The notes: generated by a model not told the origin, from the sequence alone. A DNA stretch of 51,329 nt, filler included, from Catajapyx aquilonaris (GCA_000934665.2; 2 parts of 2 records of this genome joined end to end with filler, not necessarily neighbours in it); one strand, 5' to 3'; counted from the first letter of the whole stretch, positions 14,694 to 34,082 are shown. A program made the numbers and translations.

Positions 14694-17600
14694 GTTGGGG
14701 CTGTTGGTTGGACGACATCCGAAGAGGACCATCTTCTTGTCTCTGGTTGTGGTGGCTGGATTGGGTGCAGGTCTTGCTTGCTGGAAGGAAGAGGAGGATG
14801 TCATCCTGCTATGGACCGGAAGTGGGACACAGCTGAGACGTGACGCGTTTTGGGTGAAGAAGTACTTCCCGGACACAGCGAGGTTCCAGCATGTTATTGT
14901 CGAAGCGGACAATGTGCTGGATCCGAAAGTCATCCGATTTGTAAGATGAATGCTGTCTTTTCCAGCTGGGCGTCTCACTCACGATTTATTTTCCAGTTGT
15001 CAAGATTGGACGAGGCGGTGAAAGGAATCAAAGTTGATGGACATGGATGGAGTGACGTGTGTGCTGGGTATGCTGTGAGAGATTAGTTTCTAATATCCGA
15101 TTGGTGAATGTTTTTTTAATATATACATACTCGGTGTAGGTACCACGAATTGTTTGGCGATGACAGCAACGGTTCTAGAAGGAGGAAAAGAACGGCTGAC
15201 AATAGCACAGACGAGGAAAAATCGCATTGTCTCACACGTCACTTATTGAGGTTATGGGATACCAACAGGAATGTAATCTACGACCTCAACGAAGCGGAAA
15301 TCCGAAATAAACTGACTTCAATTCTCGTTTTTGGGTACGTACAGTGTGGCTATAATTATTTTATTGATATTGATTGCAATCTTTCTTCACAGTGCCACGA
15401 GCGACCCTCCAGATTTGTCGGATTTGCTCTCAGGAGTGAGCTACGATGCTAAAGGTCAGGTGGTAGGTGCCAAGGCCACTTGGATGACATGGATGCTGAA
15501 GAAGGACGAAGAAGCCACAGCTGTAAGTACAATTTGTGATTGCTTCAACCAGAGAATGGAACCGACATTGTGAGGATCCAGCAATGGTCTACTTTGCAGA
15601 CATGGGAACGAGAGTTTGTCCCAACTGCATTGGCGGCTGCAGCATCCAGTTTTGCTCCAGCTGGAGTACGTGTGTGGGCACTTGCAGCCAGAAGCTACGA
15701 AGACAGTGTGGGTCAAGTGGTCAAAGGGGACGTTCCAGCACTCATAGGAGGTGTGGCCCTGATGCTTGTCTTTGCTGCCATGGCACTGGGTCGATGTGGG
15801 TTGGCTCGTCCAAGGGCCGCATTGGCAGTGCTTGGGGTCGTGGTGGCACCCATGGCACTCCTGGCAGCGTACGGAGGAGGTGCAGCACTGGGGGTGCCAG
15901 CAGGTCCCATCCACTGCATATTGCCGTTCCTCTTGCTCGGAGTTGGTGTCGACGACATGTTCGTCCTTCTACAGGCTCTGGCATCAGTGCCGAAGGTACC
16001 TCACTTTTTAACCTAACCACATGCCCAATTTAACACTTCCTCAACTTGTATAGGGGCTGTCGGTACCAGCTCGTCTGGCTGAGACTCTCAGGCAGGCTGG
16101 AGTGGCAGTGACGGTGACGTCGTTCTCCAACGTCGCTGCCTTCGCCGCTGGAGCAGTTACCACGGTTCCTGCATTGCGATGGTTTTGTCTCCATGCTGCA
16201 GGTGGAATACTTGCATTACTGGCGTTGCATGTGACCTTCTTCGCCGCTTGTGTCGCACTGGACGAGGCACGACGGGATAGACTGGAGGAATCCAAACTGG
16301 AGAAGAGCAAAACTGTTCTCATATCTAAAGTCGGGGATCCAGGTCCGTCATCTTCGTCGTGCTGCTTGCCCATACGAATATTCAGCTCGGCATGTTCCGG
16401 TACTGCAGGTACCGGCATTGTCATATTAATGCAATGGTACTGACGTCTGAAGCCATTTGTGTACTCTTTCCAGGACGAGATTTTCTCCAGGAGTTTTTCT
16501 CCAACTGGATGGCCCCTTGGCTGCTGTGTCCTGGAGGAAAGGTGGCCACTGTAGCCGTGGCTGTTTCTCTTGGGGCTGCTTCATGTTATGGGGTCATGCA
16601 CCTGCAGAACAACTTCGATCGCCTGCTGTACCTGCAGCCTGAGTCTGATCCCGCAAGGTTCCTCCATGCTGTGAGAAGACTCTTTCCTGCAGAAGGAGAG
16701 AGGGCTGCAGTGTACCTTCCGCCCATAGACTTCCTGCAGGAAAGGCAGAGGCTCATTTCTCTCCAGCAGCTCCTGCAGGACTGTCCATATGTGAGACCAG
16801 GATCAGTCAAGTTCTGGATGACTGGTTTGCAAGAATGGCTTAACTCCAAAAATGGTAGGAGCTCTTCCGCAGTACTTCATTAGAAGAACACTGGTACAGT
16901 TAGGCAATTTTGAACAGTACACACACAATAAGACATACATAAGCAAAAAAAATCATAAAGAAGAGCATTGCTAATTTAACTTTCAAATTCGACACTATTA
17001 CATAATACCACCAAAAAAACCACCTTGTTTTTGGTCGCTTGTCTGGAGGAAGTGGGCAGAACTGTCAAGATTTGGTTCAAACACGTGAAATCGCTTCCTC
17101 TCCTTGCAGAGACGTTTCCAACAAGCCGTGACGACTTCATGTCACAATCCAGCGATTTCCTGATCTTTTCGCCTGAGGGACACAAATTCATTCAAGATGT
17201 TCGTTTCACTGGTTTTCCATTCGGTGACTTCAACATTACTGTAAGTACTGTTCATTTAAAAAATAATAATTTACTGAGTTTTATTCTTAATTATTTTAAA
17301 TTCAATATTTTAATGATGAAACAAGATTAATATTGCAGGACAAACTGTGCAGAAAACTTCAATTACAGTGATGTGAAAATATTTTCAGCATTCATTTTTT
17401 TCCTTCAGATATATTCTCCAAAGGAACCATTTGGCTGTACAACAATAATTATTCACATGAGTTTCTGTTTTAAGGCATCCCGCATGCGTTTTGCACATCT
17501 TCCACTGGCCAACACGACCCAGCAGCGAGAGGCCATGGCTTGGCTCCGCTCTCTGGCCTCACATGTGACCCTTCCGTCATCACTGGACCCATCTGGATCT

Positions 17601-18769
17601 GCATTTGCCTATGCTGACGCCTATGTGACCTGGGAGGCCAACCAGGCCATATCCAGAGAGTTGGGCCGTAACCTTGGACTTACTTTGGCTGCGGTGGCCG
17701 CAGTGACTCTGATCCTACTTCCCAACGTGCGTGCCTGCTTTTGGGTTCTGGCCTGCGTGGCACTCACCCTGCTGGAAGTTGGGGGTGCCATTTACTTCTG
17801 GGGACTGGCTCTAGAGCTGGTGACATCGCTGGTGGTTATTTTAGCAGCTGGACTTGCAGTGGATTACGCAGCCCATGTGGCGCATGTGTTTGTTCATACT
17901 GGTGGGACTAGGAATGATCGAGGGAGAGAGACCCTCGCCAGGATAGGACCTGCAGTGCTTAATGGGGGTCTCTCCACCTTCTTGGCATTTGCATTGTTGG
18001 CAGACTCGAAATCCTATGTCTTCCTCACATTCTTTAAGGTTAGTGATATTGGGTCCCATCATTGTACAGTACAGTTAGCATAATGATTTTGGAGTATTTG
18101 AGCAATTTCCATATTTTCTGATGCAATGGAATTCACTTCCAGCTCATCCTGGCTGTCGTGACATTTGGATTGTTCCAAGGGTTGTTCCTCCTTCCTGTGG
18201 TCCTCAGCTGGTGTGGACCTGACTCAAGTGAATCCCCATCTACCTCTGCTCATAGCAGCCCTCCTGAAGAACCAAAAACGCCTATCATTACCATCTCACT
18301 TGGAGTAGACAATCATGGTTACAACCCACCTACCCCACCAATTCCGCATCCCCAGCCAACATCACCCTTGCCCCCTCGCCCTGTCACACCTCATCCAGAC
18401 TACACGCCAGAACCTTCCCCTAAAAAACCTCGTCGTCCAACCCCACCACCAAACTTGCCGTTACAGATCCCCAAAGTGAAGCCACTGGGTGAAATTGAAG
18501 AAGAGGCTCCCTACTCATCAGACGAGTCATTCGCATCAAGGAAGTTTCACAAAAAGCGGCGACCAGGTCGTCACTTATCAGCACCAGACATATACGAGGG
18601 CAAAGTGGCACCACCGTCGTATGACAGTGCCATTAGGTTAAGCTCTGATGACAGTGATGATGCATCATCAACACCGTCAACCTTCACTAAAGCGCCATCC
18701 GGGGAATCCGGATATGCAACTCCAGAACCAGTATTCAGTGGTTGTGCAGACAAAAAACAATGGCAATAA
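14694..18769 (+). CDS. Patched-related / PTCHD3-NPC1-family sterol-sensing-domain (RND) membrane protein; 5' end unresolved
   Basis: Exons 14694-14940, 14997-15067, 15140-15334, 15393-15522, 15582-15995, 16054-16408, 16474-16854, 17110-17240, 17475-18038, 18143-18769, phase-consistent. Motifs LGLLVGRHP, PFLLLGVGVDDMF (TM4), AGVAVTVTS, GLAVDYAAH (TM10), GPAVLNGGLSTFL, FGLFQGLFLLPVVLS; Pro-rich tail. Start-codon exon not determined. Confidence 0.9.
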
Positions 18770-21183: not shown

Positions 21184-24100
21184 ATGGCAACTTCCAAAGC
21201 AGCGATTCTCGATCTCGACGTGAGTAATTATTTCCCAGTTAATCAGGCTGTTCAATTACTTCGCACTCGTTTAATAAGCATTCTTGTAACTCGTAGGTTG
21301 ATGTGCAGCGAGAAGCGGAAGCGCAGCTGCAGTTCCAGGGTAAGGCGGATGGGTTACGTTGGCCAGTGACATGTCATTTTCATCATTTGTTCCATTTGCA
21401 GAGTTCTCGCCGTCGACATCGTCGTCAACGTCGCTTCCTTTGGGCCAGCAGCAGACGAGCGGGAAGCGGGAGCAGGTCATAAACTTCACATCGTTTCCAG
21501 ACACGCCAGGATCCGATGATGAGGATGCCGAGACACAGGTGAATGCTTAGCTGATGTCGTAGCGTCTTATTAGAGCAAATAAATGCACCAATGCATCAGG
21601 GGACGTTGTGGTCAATGTGCATATTAACTGACTAAGAAATACAGAAAATCTGGATGTTTGAGTCCGAGGACAAATGCATGCTTGACATTTACTGTACTTC
21701 ATGCTATTAAGAGCAAACCAGGACCACGTTTGGGGACAAAAAACCAATGAAGCTACGAGGGCCGTACTAAAATTATTTACAATATATTTTTTTGCCACAA
21801 TTACAGTGCCCATACAGGTCGGCAGATAGTCACACATTATAGATAGAATGCTCCTGGAGCCGAATGCACTGCCACTCATAGGTGTGTCAACGTCTCCAGG
21901 CCATCCAGGAACCACTTTTTGAGGGTGCGTGGCACCCACGACCGGACAACTGTGCACAATCAACAACGTAAACAACTGTCAACAGTGTCCTCGAAATGGC
22001 GTCGGCGAAGGGTTTTTTCTCATGGATCTGGGTTTGGGTGCTTCCATACCCACTGCACTCACCCGGCTTGGCCCCTTGTGACTTTCACCTTATCAGATCC
22101 ATGAAAAAATCTCCTTTGCCGATGCCATTTCGAGGACATTGTTGACTGTACGTAAGCAGTTGTCCGGGAGGGGGTGCGCGGAACCTCCAAAAAATGGTTC
22201 CTGGGGAGGCTGGAAAGGTTGACACACCCATGAATCCTGCTCATTCAGCTCCAGGAGGATTCTCTCGAGAAAGTGTGACTATCTGCCGACCGGTACGGGC
22301 ACGGTATTTGTGGCAAAAAAATAAATTGTGAATCATTTTAGTACGGCCCTCGTAGTTTTGACATTGCTCCTCGGTTCCATTATTCCAAGGTTGCTTACTG
22401 TGTTGCCCGGTCTCGTTAGCAGATCCCTGAACCATTTGTGTTGTCGAACCTGTGCGGCTTTGTTTGCCATTGTGAGCTCCCAAGAACTTCATGAGAGTGC
22501 ATTCATTTTGTGACATGTATGTCAGTGATAATTTAGCATTTTGAGCTAGTAGCAGTAGTATCGGCCAGTTGGGTTTGGTTGGAGGGAGAGTCTTATGGAT
22601 ACACTAAACAATCTCTTATTCAAATATCTGGGAACCAAAAAGCAATAGACACTTCCTCCTCAGTCATGTTGGTGTGGTCCCCATGGATGCCACTTGTTCC
22701 TCCTTTCTAATCAACTGCTATAAATAATGAGAAGCAATACGATAAACAAATTATCCGAACGCTGGAACAATCAAGAGTGACTCTTAACACCCATCTCTAA
22801 ACATTGTTCCAGGGTTCGGCTCCAAGCGTGCCTGTAAAGCGAGCAAGATTCTTTTCATGGAAGTTGCGTCCCATTCTGGATGACAAATATACAGACCTGC
22901 CACTCATCATTGAGGCATATGCTGCTAAAATTATAGACCCTAAGGAGACATCAGCACTCATGAAGCAACTTAACAAAATCATGCCAATTCCTAGCCTGCT
23001 GCACTTGAAGAGGGTTAAGAATCTTTATGATGGAAAGGTAGTGCTAGAAAGGAGTGTTTTGTTATGCCTGAAAGACTCTGAGAGATCTGCCCCTTGCCTG
23101 GAAAAGTTGGGCTTAGACACAACAGGATTAGATGTGGAGTCAGTTATGACAGTTTCAGTTCCTGGAAAACCACCATTAACTCGCTCCCAGTTTGAGCAAT
23201 GCAACAAACTGTGGCCATGCAATTTTCGGGAGGATAAGGAGTTAGAAGCAACTTTGCTGAGCAGCAGGTTCAGCTCTTTGGATCTGGTGACCATGGAGCA
23301 GCACATGGCACTTGCTTTGGAAATTGCAAAGGAAAGTGCAGCAGGCATTGCAGCTGCAATATTTGACTCTTCTGGCAGCCTAGTTTGCAGAGTTGCAGAC
23401 AGGCGTGAGTCACATCCTTTGCAGCATGCAACGATGGTTGCTCTTGATGAAGTTTCAGCACTTCGAGGTGGTGGGTCCTGGAGCACAAATAAAGTGACGC
23501 CTGAAGAGAGAAAAGACACTGATTACTTATGTACACGGTATGATGTGTATGTTACACGTGAACCATGCTTGATGTGCGCAATGGCATTAACACATTCAAG
23601 GGTTGGCCGTGTCATGTTTGGATGCACGAGCGCAAATGGAGGTCTTGGAAGCGTCACCAAACTGCATTGCCTGGGTGGGATTAATCACCGTTATGAGGCA
23701 TTTGGAGGCATTTTGGAGGCAGAATGTGCCAAAATTTGTCAGAAATAAATGGTTTTTAAGTTTTATTCTCATTGATTTTGTATTAGTTAACAGTCCCGCA
23801 CACAGTGTCCATAAGCAACATTTTACAGCATCCTAGATTTTTAAATTCTTCGGCAACTTTTATCGTACTAGTATGCATACATTATGCACAGTTACTGTGA
23901 TCTTTTATATTTGTAGCATATGTTAAAAGAATAAGTGGTGGAGGAACTGGTAATTACTAGGCCATATTGCCCATATAGCTAGGTGAGTGAAATGCTAAAT
24001 TGAGTGAAATTATGAGTAAAATTTACATTAATTAACTGGTCTTACTGACAGAATGTTGTACTTTTTTCCCAATGGTTCTTTTTTTGTTGTTGCAGCTTTT

Positions 24101-25234
24101 GGATCCGCAGCAGCAGCCCCAAGCCAAAACTACACCGTCATTCCTTTCATTTGAGTACTACCAACAGTTTTTCAATGTGGAAACGAAGCACGTCAGAGAC
24201 CGAATCATTTGGTCCATGGTTCCTTATCCTCGTGTCAACTACCTGCAGCATTACATCCGGCCTAACCCAGACATATATGGTACAAATTTTTATAACATGT
24301 ACACTCAGCCCCCTGCAACTTCCTATCCAGCCATACAGGGAAGGCCGTGCGTTTAGCTGGTCCGCTATCCCTGGATGTAGTATCCGAAAACCCGTACGTA
24401 GAGCCCTATATCAAAACGCCTTCTGGCGGACGTCTCTGAACCGTCCTGAACCTATACCTACACCGTCCAACCCCATCAGCCCCCATTTGCAGATCCAACC
24501 ATCAGCCACACGAAATGCAATTTAACCAATCACTCAATAATGCCATAACAAGGCATCTACTATTTATATTTAATGACTTCCAATCCCAAAACAATTATCA
24601 TATCTATACATAATAATCAATAATAACAAAACCACTTCTACCTGCATTCAGGTGGCTGGTGCGGTGGATCTGCAAACGGGGGCTGATGGGATTGGATGGT
24701 GTAGGTACGTTCAGGATAGTTCAGAAACGTCCCCCAGAATGCAATTTGATGCTGGGCTTTACATAAGTTTACATCCGGGTTTTCAGGATCTGCATCCGGG
24801 GATAGCTAAGCACACGGGAAAAGGGAGCTAGTTGTGGGGGGCTGTGTACAATACTTGTGTGACATTGCTTTTGATCGTGTTTGTCTTTCATTAAGGGACA
24901 TGTGATATGTTATCACTCATTCCTGCTTAGTAAATAAGTTCTAATATTCGCAGGGCCCTTTTGGATATGCGTCACATTGATTTTCACCATTGCGATGGCT
25001 GGCAATGTATCCAACTACCTACAAACAGCCGCCAAAGCCACATATGTGTGGCGTTATGATTTCCACCAAGTGACAATTGCCAGCACAGCAATATTTTCAT
25101 ATGCCTCGATGATTCCCCTGCTTTTGTGGACCATTCTGTGGTGGCGTCACAGTGGCGAGGGAGGCCCACAGGTCACTCTGCTGGAGCTTCTTTGTGTGTA
25201 TGGCTACTCTCTCGCCATATACATTCCAGTTTCC
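21184..25234 (+). CDS. YIPF1: YIPF1/YIPF2-family Yip1-domain Golgi membrane protein; 3' exon(s) missing at the assembly gap
   Basis: Exons 21184-21219, 21297-21339, 21402-21538, 24096-24279, 24954-25234. Motifs LQFQEF, FLSFEYYQQFFNVETKHVRDRI, IRPNPDIYGPFWICVTLIF, WRYDFHQVT, LELLCVYGYSLAIYIPVS. Confidence 0.9.
21756..22352. mobile_element. mariner-like fold-back MITE in YIPF intron 3
   Basis: TA-CGAGGGCCGTACTAAAAT ... ATTTTAGTACGGCCCTCG-TA; arms pair imperfectly over about 260 bp around a loop at about 22031-22093. Confidence 0.88.
22813..23748 (+). CDS. ADAT3: tRNA adenosine(34) deaminase non-catalytic subunit ADAT3/Tad3, single large exon nested in YIPF intron 3
   Basis: [34 protein letters not shown] (HAE glutamate replaced), [38 protein letters not shown]. 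Begins at phase-0 acceptor ttccag (AG 22811-22812); AATAAA overlaps the stop codon. Confidence 0.93.
   Translation, partial: [311 protein letters not shown]
24302..24846. mobile_element. Diverged fold-back MITE (TA-flanked, Tc1/mariner-like) in YIPF intron 4
   Basis: TA-CACTCAGCCCCCTGCAACT ... AGTTGTGGGGGGCTGTG-TA; internal inverted matches such as ccccatcagcccccatttgcagatcc / ggatctgcaaacgggggctgatggg. Confidence 0.75.
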
Positions 25235-25578
25235 GTGAGTATTCTATAAAATCGCATCCATGAAAGCAACTGATTGTGTTCCAGTTTTTACAGGCATGAC
25301 ATATTTATTTGCTGAGAATACTGCATTCATACTGTAACTTGCTTGTGTTGCTTGATTTATTGCGGTTATTGCTGTACTGGATACTTGAGTGCTTCCAGGG
25401 ACTACCTACAGCAATATTTCAGTCGATGTTTTTGTGGAAGTTCTGCAAGGACCAATCATCTGGAATCGTACTCATTGTGTGCGACTGATTTTTGCAGAGC
25501 TTGCATCCAGAATTCCACAGCAATTTAGTAGCATTTAGCTAATGGATGCATTATTGCTGCAAGTCAACGGTTAACGCC

Positions 25579-32277: not shown

Positions 32278-34082
32278 GAGCACCCCGGTCTAAGAGGGAC
32301 GCCGCTGGCGATGCTGGCGGCGCAGTGCAACAAGCTCTCCAGCAAGAGCCCTCCACCTCTTGCTGACGCCGCCGTGGGCAAAGGCTTCCACCCGTGGAAG
32401 AAGACTGCGGGTGGGATGGGCATGGGCGTTGGTGTTGGAGTGTCCGTGTCCTCCTCCATGCCGCCGACGCTGTCCCTGGCTGCAGGACATCAAAGAAACC
32501 CGGTGACCTCATCGGTGGCATCGACGGGATGCACCTACAACCGATCCGTCGTAACCTCCGCTTGTCCCTCCGCACCTTACGCACCTGACCTCTACTTCAC
32601 CCCAGGGGCAGGACCCCCGGGTGGCCATCATCACGGAGGCGGTTCAGTCGGAGTCAATTCAGGACATTCTCAGGCTGACCTAGGAAAGGTAAGTGTCATT
32701 GACAGTGCATTCAGGACACCTGGACACGTTTTCCATTTTGTTCTATCACACCCACTATAGGTGGCTGCAGCGGAAGGGGCAGCTGCGGCGGCACACTTAG
32801 GAAGCATGAGCAGCATGTACTCCCGTGTGGCTGCTGCAGCTGCGGCGTCGGCTGCGTCGGCAGCGGCACACCAATACGAGTCATGGCCGTTCAACGCGAT
32901 GCCGGCTGCATCGGCCCACTCGGCCGGTATCAAGCCGGAGGTGAACTCGCTCAATTCCACCACGGCTGCTTGGTGGGACATGCACTCGGCTGCGGCTGCT
33001 GCAGGAGGCTGGCTGGACATGAGCGGGGCCGCCCCTGGGCTGCCCGCCATGTCGGCTGCCGGTATGCACACACCCAACTACCCATCAGACTATCCCTCGG
33101 CGCTATCCCATTCCCTGGCCGCTGCTGCCTCTTCACCGCACCTACTGTCGTCAGGACAGCACCTTCTGCAGGACACCTACAAGTCTATGCTCCCAGGGGC
33201 ACAAGGGGTTCCCGCATCCGTCGCATCTCCCTTTGGCCTTAGTCAGCCCTCACTGCCTCAGGTTCCCTCTCCAAGGTCAGTATTGTTGATGTTTTGAAGG
33301 TGCAGAAACCGGCTAAAACGTCGCACCAGAATTACACTATCACTCTATGATCAAGTTTCAAATGATTCTGGAGCTACCCCAGCCGTTTTCTGAACCGTTA
33401 ATGTACTTAGGAGGATGGGTACAGGACCAGACGCTTGAGCCTGGCCCTGTAACCATCCTTCGGTGTGTGTGTCTGCCTGGGTGTTTGGGTGACGCACCTC
33501 CGACGTACGTACGGTCGGTCCCATAGACGTAACCCGCACGTTGCGACGCGTAGGTCGCAGAGGCGCTACACAGGCCGAGCGACGTGCGACTGCCCCAACT
33601 GCCAGGAAGCTGAGCGACTTGGCCCTGCCGGCGCACACCTGAGGAAGAAGAACATCCACAGCTGCCACATCCCAGGCTGCGGGAAGGTGTACGGCAAGAC
33701 ATCTCATTTGAAGGCTCATCTGAGGTGGCACACAGGCGAACGGCCATTCGTGTGCAACTGGCTCTTTTGCGGGAAACGATTCACCCGCTCCGACGAGCTG
33801 CAACGTCACCTCCGTACGCACACGGGAGAGAAGCGCTTTGCTTGTCCTGTTTGCAACAAGCGCTTCATGCGCTCCGACCACCTGTCTAAACATGTCAAGA
33901 CGCACAACGGCAACGGCGGCGGAAAGAAGAGCGGATCAGAGAGCTGCAGCGACTCGGAGGACAACAGCCAGTCCGAGCCGCCTAGTGTCAGTTCGCCTGC
34001 CTCTGTCAACACGCCCCCCTTATCGCAACAGACTCTCGAGCCATCACCCAATTCCGTCGTCGACATCAAACCCGCTGTCTGA
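32278..34082 (+). CDS. Sp6-9: Sp6-9 (Sp8/Sp9-like) zinc-finger transcription factor; upstream exon unresolved
   Basis: Exons 32278-32688, 32761-33275, 33554-34082. Sp box [34 protein letters not shown], Btd box [14 protein letters not shown], three C2H2 fingers ([73 protein letters not shown]). Confidence 0.95.

Follow-up and report, generated by a model that had tools for sequence, protein, structure and literature searches.

A probable alternative last exon of YIPF1 in Catajapyx aquilonaris encodes ADAT3 and lacks a usable start codon of its own

The window, by which we mean the whole stretch of 51,329 nucleotides (filler included) from Catajapyx aquilonaris that was analysed, contains a eukaryotic, arthropod-type locus in which a YIPF-type gene starts with an ATG at 21184 on the plus strand. 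Its exons are arranged as follows:

21184..21219, plus strand: YIPF1 coding exon 1, 12 codons, donor GAC/gtgagt in phase 0
21297..21339, plus strand: YIPF1 exon 2, 43 nt, ending in phase 1 at G/gtaagg
21402..21538, plus strand: YIPF1 exon 3, ending in phase 0 at CAG/gtgaat
24096..24279, plus strand: YIPF1 exon 4, acceptor ttgttgcag/CTT in phase 0
24954..25234, plus strand: YIPF1 exon 5, encoding part of the Yip1 domain

Exons 1-3 sum to 216 nt, that is 72 codons without a stop. The peptide of exon 1 can be aligned with the YIPF1 N-termini of decapods and krill, exon 2 encodes the conserved QLQFQ motif, and a decapod/krill YIPF1 profile matches exon 3 at 21449-21526 (E 9e-4). When the peptide of exons 1-3 is compared as a whole with arthropod YIPF1 N-termini, Smith-Waterman scores of 85-95 are obtained, and none of 2000 shuffles scored as high. 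Exons 4 and 5 are 67-78% and 55-61% identical to decapod and krill YIPF1, respectively, and the Pfam family Yip1 (PF04893) is recognized at 24938-25249 with 33 bits (cutoff 28.6). Judging from these matches, the gene is the orthologue of arthropod YIPF1 over its N-terminus and exons 4-5; tblastn and profile searches located no YIPF1 exons 3' of 25234.

Intron 3 of this gene harbours a further coding sequence on the same strand, with host exons on both sides:

22798-22800, plus strand: in-frame TAA, 12 nt 5' of the acceptor, at which the ADAT3 frame is closed
22813..23748, plus strand: ADAT3 terminal exon, acceptor ttccag/GGT in phase 0, 311 codons, stop TAA at 23746-23748
23744..23749, plus strand: AATAAA poly(A) signal overlapping the ADAT3 stop, with a T/GT-rich stretch next to it

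The exon is read in the frame of a 315-codon open frame (22801-23748), and its phase-0 acceptor is frame-compatible with the phase-0 donors of YIPF exons 1 and 3. The sole other AG between the upstream TAA and the start of the homology (22825-26) could only be used with a phase-2 donor, and YIPF exons 1-3 provide none. Given that this alternative AG lacks a donor, and that orthologous gene models break at the same boundary (see below), the arrangement appears to go beyond chance. An earlier note on this DNA had described the phase-0 ends at 21219 and 21538, the ADAT3 exon on the same strand in YIPF intron 3 behind the TAA, the phase-0 acceptor and the overlap of AATAAA with the ADAT3 stop, and all of these points were confirmed on the sequence.

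Two Pfam families are recognized in the nested exon, dCMP_cyt_deam_1 (PF00383; 41.9 bits, cutoff 25) and MafB19-deam (PF14437; 43.5 bits, cutoff 27). Exon residues 15-308 align with residues 25-313 of mouse ADAT3 (chain 7nz7_B; E 9.3e-54), and the protein collection contains no close relative of the window protein, its best match being 43% identical. The zinc motifs HPLQHAT and EPCLMC are present. Where mouse ADAT3 reads H-A-V-M, the window reads H-A-T-M, which places a Thr in the position of the catalytic Glu; given that this Thr follows H-A where mouse has Val, the window protein is of the non-catalytic type. By domain content and alignment, the 311-codon exon is ADAT3/Tad3, the non-catalytic subunit that pairs with ADAT2 in the active tRNA A34 deaminase, and it has kept the ADAT3-type N-terminal domain. 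It could be argued that the nested ADAT3 is a retrocopy or a decaying duplicate without a start codon, the working gene being located elsewhere, and a single exon that has no ATG to begin with would fit such an origin. However, the 311-codon frame is intact, zinc motifs and N-terminal domain have been kept, a precise phase-0 acceptor follows right after the upstream stop and the same intron position is seen in decapod models, and we consider a dead copy very improbable.

The first in-frame ATG of the ADAT3 exon is found at 22960 and corresponds to exon residue 50. This agrees with the previous observation that the first ATG falls after the ADAT3 N-terminal homology, as the alignment with mouse begins at residue 15 of the exon. 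Three ATGs in other frames, each opening a short frame, precede Met 50 (22857, 22880 and 22919). Exon residues 15-23 are the counterparts of mouse residues 25-33, which form a strand in the central sheet of the C-terminal domain in the mouse ADAT2/ADAT3 structure; tRNA binding and deamination require the N-terminal domain that follows, ADAT3-N (34-151) (PMC8216470). Initiation at Met 50 would delete this strand of ADAT3-C together with part of the tRNA-binding domain, which argues that the start codon is provided by an upstream exon. In the nearest relatives of the window ADAT3 (P0001-P0004), the predicted start Met aligns with a GTG of the window (VPVKR in the window versus MEAKR):

22828..22830, plus strand: GTG codon in the context ccaagcGTGc, a possible lost ATG or near-cognate start

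It appears that an internal ATG, still present in some relatives, has been lost in the lineage of the window, and with this ATG lost, a fusion of YIPF1 and ADAT3 would be obligatory.

Alternatively, an unspliced transcript might start just 5' of the ADAT3 exon and be translated either from the near-cognate GTG at 22828 or from Met 50. One sequence element in the intron would be in line with such a transcript:

22719..22726, plus strand: TATAAATA, 94 nt 5' of the ADAT3 acceptor

This element, one of two copies on the plus strand of the window, is a weak hint at a possible internal promoter, and the GTG combines its alignment with the start Met of P0001-P0004 with an A at position -3. However, GTG starts are inefficient in eukaryotes, three out-of-frame ATGs stand ahead of Met 50, and a Met 50 protein would lack both the strand and some of the tRNA-binding domain. 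In addition, TATAAA is found 26 times on the plus strand of the window. We regard expression from an unspliced transcript as highly unlikely.

Crustacean gene models, all of which are automatic RefSeq models, point to YIPF1 as the source of the start codon. The first 63 residues of ADAT3 isoform X2 of Panulirus ornatus (P0013; XP_071531737 is the Panulirus model) resemble the exon 1-3 peptide of the window. Using residues 1-70 of this isoform as a query, we recovered 10 proteins from 17 candidates, all of them with the same N-terminus: five deaminase-type matches (Panulirus, Penaeus monodon, Procambarus clarkii and two isoforms of Eriocheir sinensis) and five Yip1-type matches, namely YIPF1 of Panulirus, Homarus, Procambarus, Penaeus vannamei and Meganyctiphanes. 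Contig positions were compared for Panulirus ornatus and Procambarus clarkii (XP_045621536/7): in both species ADAT3 and YIPF1 share a contig, and the ADAT3 and YIPF1 RefSeq proteins have their N-terminal 63-64 residues in common. Similarly, ADAT3 X1 of Penaeus monodon (XP_037788315) carries the N-terminus of P. vannamei YIPF1, and two models of Eriocheir sinensis (XP_050689854) place a YIPF1 N-terminus on an ADAT3 body. In four of four decapods, the point at which ADAT3 and YIPF1 diverge aligns with the end of exon 3 in the window, i.e. with the boundary between exons 3 and 4. An 852-residue model of Penaeus chinensis runs from exons 1-3 into ADAT3 and then into YIPF exon 4 onward; while this model is probably a mis-merge, it indicates the same gene order on one strand.

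The shared N-terminus is also detectable outside the decapods. A profile of the YIPF N-terminus, compared with the 150 best ADAT3 representatives from a library of 1.84 billion proteins, gave three matches: two decapod proteins (P0042 and P0044, E below 1e-20 each) and, weakly, P0160 (E 0.027), which is ADAT3 X1 of Artemia franciscana (XP_065581667 is the Artemia model). The N-terminus of this Artemia isoform reaches a Smith-Waterman score of 63 against the exon 1-3 peptide of the window, a score matched by none of 2000 shuffles, whereas the N-termini of five control ADAT3 representatives, three of them from named insects, score 15-32. The window and the crustacean models would have in common a YIPF1 N-terminus on ADAT3, and the decapod proteins switch at the position homologous to the end of exon 3. 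They differ in that the window ADAT3 is 31-34% identical to decapod ADAT3 and is devoid of the long inserts of the decapod proteins, and in that Artemia has an additional isoform with a Met of its own, whereas the window ADAT3 has none. The proposal of the earlier note, i.e. one transcription unit from which ADAT3 takes its ATG and N-terminal residues, gains support from these orthologous models, in which ADAT3 has the YIPF1 N-terminus in four decapods and, by N-terminal similarity, in Artemia.

The start codon could also come from a small first exon that belongs to ADAT3 itself, with its own ATG and promoter in intron 3 or further upstream, and that is spliced to 22813; the phase match with YIPF would then be unused or serve a minor isoform. 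A scan of the intron returned 20 ATG-to-GT phase-0 candidates for such an exon. None of these is convincing: with an approximate weight matrix for donor sites, their best donors score 6.07 versus 8.89 for the exon 3 donor, and the best ones lie inside a foldback element:

21750..22358, no strand: foldback (MITE-like) element, located within the intron between exon 3 and the exon of ADAT3 and built of three nested pairs of inverted repeats

The arms of this element are 117, 77 and 56 nt long and 78-88% complementary, and a 17-nt arm motif occurs, within the window, only in its two arms. Among the relatives, isoform X4 of Artemia (P0190) starts with a Met immediately ahead of the ADAT3 exon sequence, and Panulirus X1 begins with a different first exon but keeps the exon 2-3 peptide; alternative starts therefore do exist. 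However, every decapod isoform seen passes through the exon 2-3 peptide, which is present in all three ADAT3 isoforms of Panulirus and in both isoforms of Procambarus. Given these models and the donor scores, we think it unlikely that ADAT3 of the window relies on a first exon of its own.

From the sequence of the locus and its orthologues, we consider it likely that ADAT3 is an alternative last exon of YIPF1, both being expressed from one transcription unit. Transcription would proceed from the YIPF1 promoter, and translation of both proteins would begin at the YIPF1 ATG at 21184. The donor of exon 3 (21538) would then face two acceptors, 22813 and 24096. Splicing of 21538 to 22813, followed by cleavage and polyadenylation just behind the AATAAA at 23744, would yield a protein of 383 residues that consists of YIPF1(1-72) and complete ADAT3; skipping of the ADAT3 exon and use of the junction 21538>24096 would yield YIPF1. 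Two routes into the ADAT3 exon had been envisaged earlier, from 21538 and from 21219. Given that the decapod proteins switch at the homologue of 21538, the former is expected and the latter is not, and by homology it would be the junction 21538>22813 that is used in Catajapyx aquilonaris. The ratio of the two products may be regulated, and the choice between the acceptors could set tRNA I34 editing against YIPF output. The 72 residues derived from YIPF1 are acidic and rich in Ser. Given that residue 25 is the first ordered residue named for mouse ADAT3 in the cited part of the structural study (PMC8216470), a flexible N-terminal extension is unlikely to disturb the ADAT3 fold.

Gene pairs with a common promoter and common 5' exons but different coding sequences have been listed before, and human SCAMP4/ADAT3 is one of the entries; in CPNE1/RBM12 and other pairs of the same list, one promoter drives two unrelated proteins, which arise by alternative splicing and polyadenylation downstream of the shared 5' exons (PMC2568002). 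ADAT3 is paired with a membrane-traffic gene in human as well as here, but the host is SCAMP4 in human and YIPF1 in the window, where 72 coding residues would be shared and a chimeric protein would be made. In human, the exon shared by SCAMP4 and ADAT3 is not known to give host-derived residues to ADAT3. Likewise, the shared part is 5' UTR in pairs of the CPNE1/RBM12 type, whereas in the window it comprises the start codon and three coding exons. Another related arrangement is the cholinergic gene locus, in which the first intron of ChAT contains the intronless VAChT gene in the same orientation and both genes share the promoter and a 5' exon. While the position of an intronless, same-strand gene in a 5' intron of its host is alike, the shared exon of the cholinergic locus is non-coding and its two products act in one pathway, in contrast to the coding exons shared in the window. 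We know of no functional link between YIPF1 and ADAT3. YIPF1-ADAT3 would be a member of the gene pairs that share promoter and 5' exons, set apart by its host gene and by the sharing of coding exons. In our literature search, no ADAT3-YIPF1 link was found, and papers that mention both ADAT3 and YIPF genes look, by their titles and the beginnings of their abstracts, like gene lists; the search returned no description of the crustacean YIPF1/ADAT3 models and no ADAT3 as a nested gene in such a layout. Given that the host genes differ (SCAMP4 versus YIPF1), it is plausible that the layout is convergent with the vertebrate arrangement.

If the proposed layout is correct, the dose of ADAT3 would depend on the promoter of an unrelated Golgi gene, on which of two acceptors is chosen and on an intronic poly(A) site, and this animal as well as several crustaceans would make an ADAT3 protein with 60-70 foreign N-terminal residues. 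Transfer RNAs with I34 are reportedly needed for low-complexity proteins. Eukaryotic tRNAs depend on ADAT3 for their wobble inosine, and variants of the human gene lead to neurodevelopmental disease (PMC12404733). The YIPF1-ADAT3 locus would provide a testable natural case in which tRNA-modification capacity is controlled by splicing. It also carries a warning for annotation, as loci of this kind are prone to erroneous splitting, or to merging of the sort seen in the 852-residue model of Penaeus chinensis.

The phylogenetic range of the layout bears on its age. A quick maximum-likelihood tree was built from 68 ADAT3 rows. The window belongs to a clade of 29 rows (SH-aLRT 96) in this tree, and all ten organism-named rows of this clade are insects (Nesidiocoris, Anabrus, Bacillus rossius, Coptotermes, Timema, Cacopsylla, Bemisia, Hetaerina, Megalurothrips and Ranatra). 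Decapod ADAT3 forms a separate clade (SH-aLRT 99), and the Artemia branch is long and unresolved. Of the named insect proteins, those nearest to the window have their own N-termini, and a YIPF-like N-terminus is carried by three of the 150 best ADAT3 representatives. A search with the exon 3 peptide among longer proteins gave no scoring match in 33 candidates. Likewise, none of the 80 ADAT3 loci kept from metagenomes had a YIPF-like exon at E 1e-3, and motif and lenient searches of 11 chosen loci found no YIPF exon; two of these 11 (L007 and L009) encode an ADAT3 with 84% identity to a protein of the Coptotermes cluster and are on contigs that reach only ~2 kb upstream and 0.8 kb downstream. 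Among the insects, the N-terminus of Hetaerina ADAT3 X2 scores 28 against the exon 1-3 peptide, which 68 of 5000 shuffles reached, and it gave no match with the N-termini of decapods, krill or Artemia; a YIPF-like N-terminus in Hetaerina is a lead only.

Given that the layout would span Malacostraca, Branchiopoda and the window, which is probably from a hexapod, we infer an early origin in Pancrustacea, and the YIPF1-ADAT3 layout is probably old or ancestral there; repeated origin may be the alternative to such a single early event. On a simple reading, a fused route and a route through an internal ATG once coexisted, and the lineage of the window kept the fused route only. Why ADAT3 has repeatedly become a passenger of other genes, SCAMP4 and YIPF1, is a question that these loci raise. 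A more far-reaching scenario, which we offer tentatively and hold to be doubtful as a whole, is that the unit is ancestral to Pancrustacea and several hundred million years old, that it became obligatory in lineages like that of the window, leaving the essential tRNA-editing subunit there with no promoter or start codon of its own, and that ADAT3 independently became a passenger of SCAMP4 in vertebrates; such a history would suggest that co-regulation of I34-dependent translation and membrane-traffic capacity has been selected for.

Among relatives, the RefSeq model of Penaeus chinensis (P0048, 852 aa) unites YIPF exons 1-3, ADAT3 and the remaining part of YIPF1 in one protein, and most likely represents an annotation in which the two alternative products, YIPF1 and ADAT3, have been merged. 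The N-terminus of a Hetaerina ADAT3 protein (isoform X2, P0096; residues 1-20) bears a weak likeness to the peptide encoded by exon 2 of the window (score 28, equalled or exceeded by 68 of 5000 shuffles), and may be a trace of the YIPF1-ADAT3 arrangement in this damselfly. On L007, a metagenome contig whose ADAT3 shares 84% identity with a protein of the Coptotermes cluster, the region 1925-1990 holds a good acceptor-like site (ttttttatttccag, cut before G) about 50 nt 5' of the ADAT3 ATG, and an in-frame stop lies between the two. This ADAT3 may also be given a spliced, non-coding 5' exon.

Further features of the window lie within and beyond the YIPF1 gene:

17331-18080, + strand: open frame of 250 codons, borderline MMPL-family match
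21750-22358: foldback (MITE-like) element of about 610 bp, three nested inverted-repeat pairs
24364-24806: another element built of inverted repeats, within YIPF intron 4
33453-34079, + strand: open frame encoding C2H2 zinc fingers (match to zf-H2C2_2 at E 3.4e-14)

The foldback element occupies the intron that separates YIPF exon 3 from the ADAT3 exon, and its 17-nt arm motif is confined to it across the whole window. The arms of the element in intron 4 measure 43 nt, with 93% complementarity, and 37 nt, with 78%. Upstream of YIPF1, the MMPL-family match scores 20.3 bits, just under the cutoff of 20.5; a sterol-sensing or RND-like membrane protein may have one of its exons in this frame. The zinc-finger frame is located at the GC peak of the window (59% GC at 32-34 kb).
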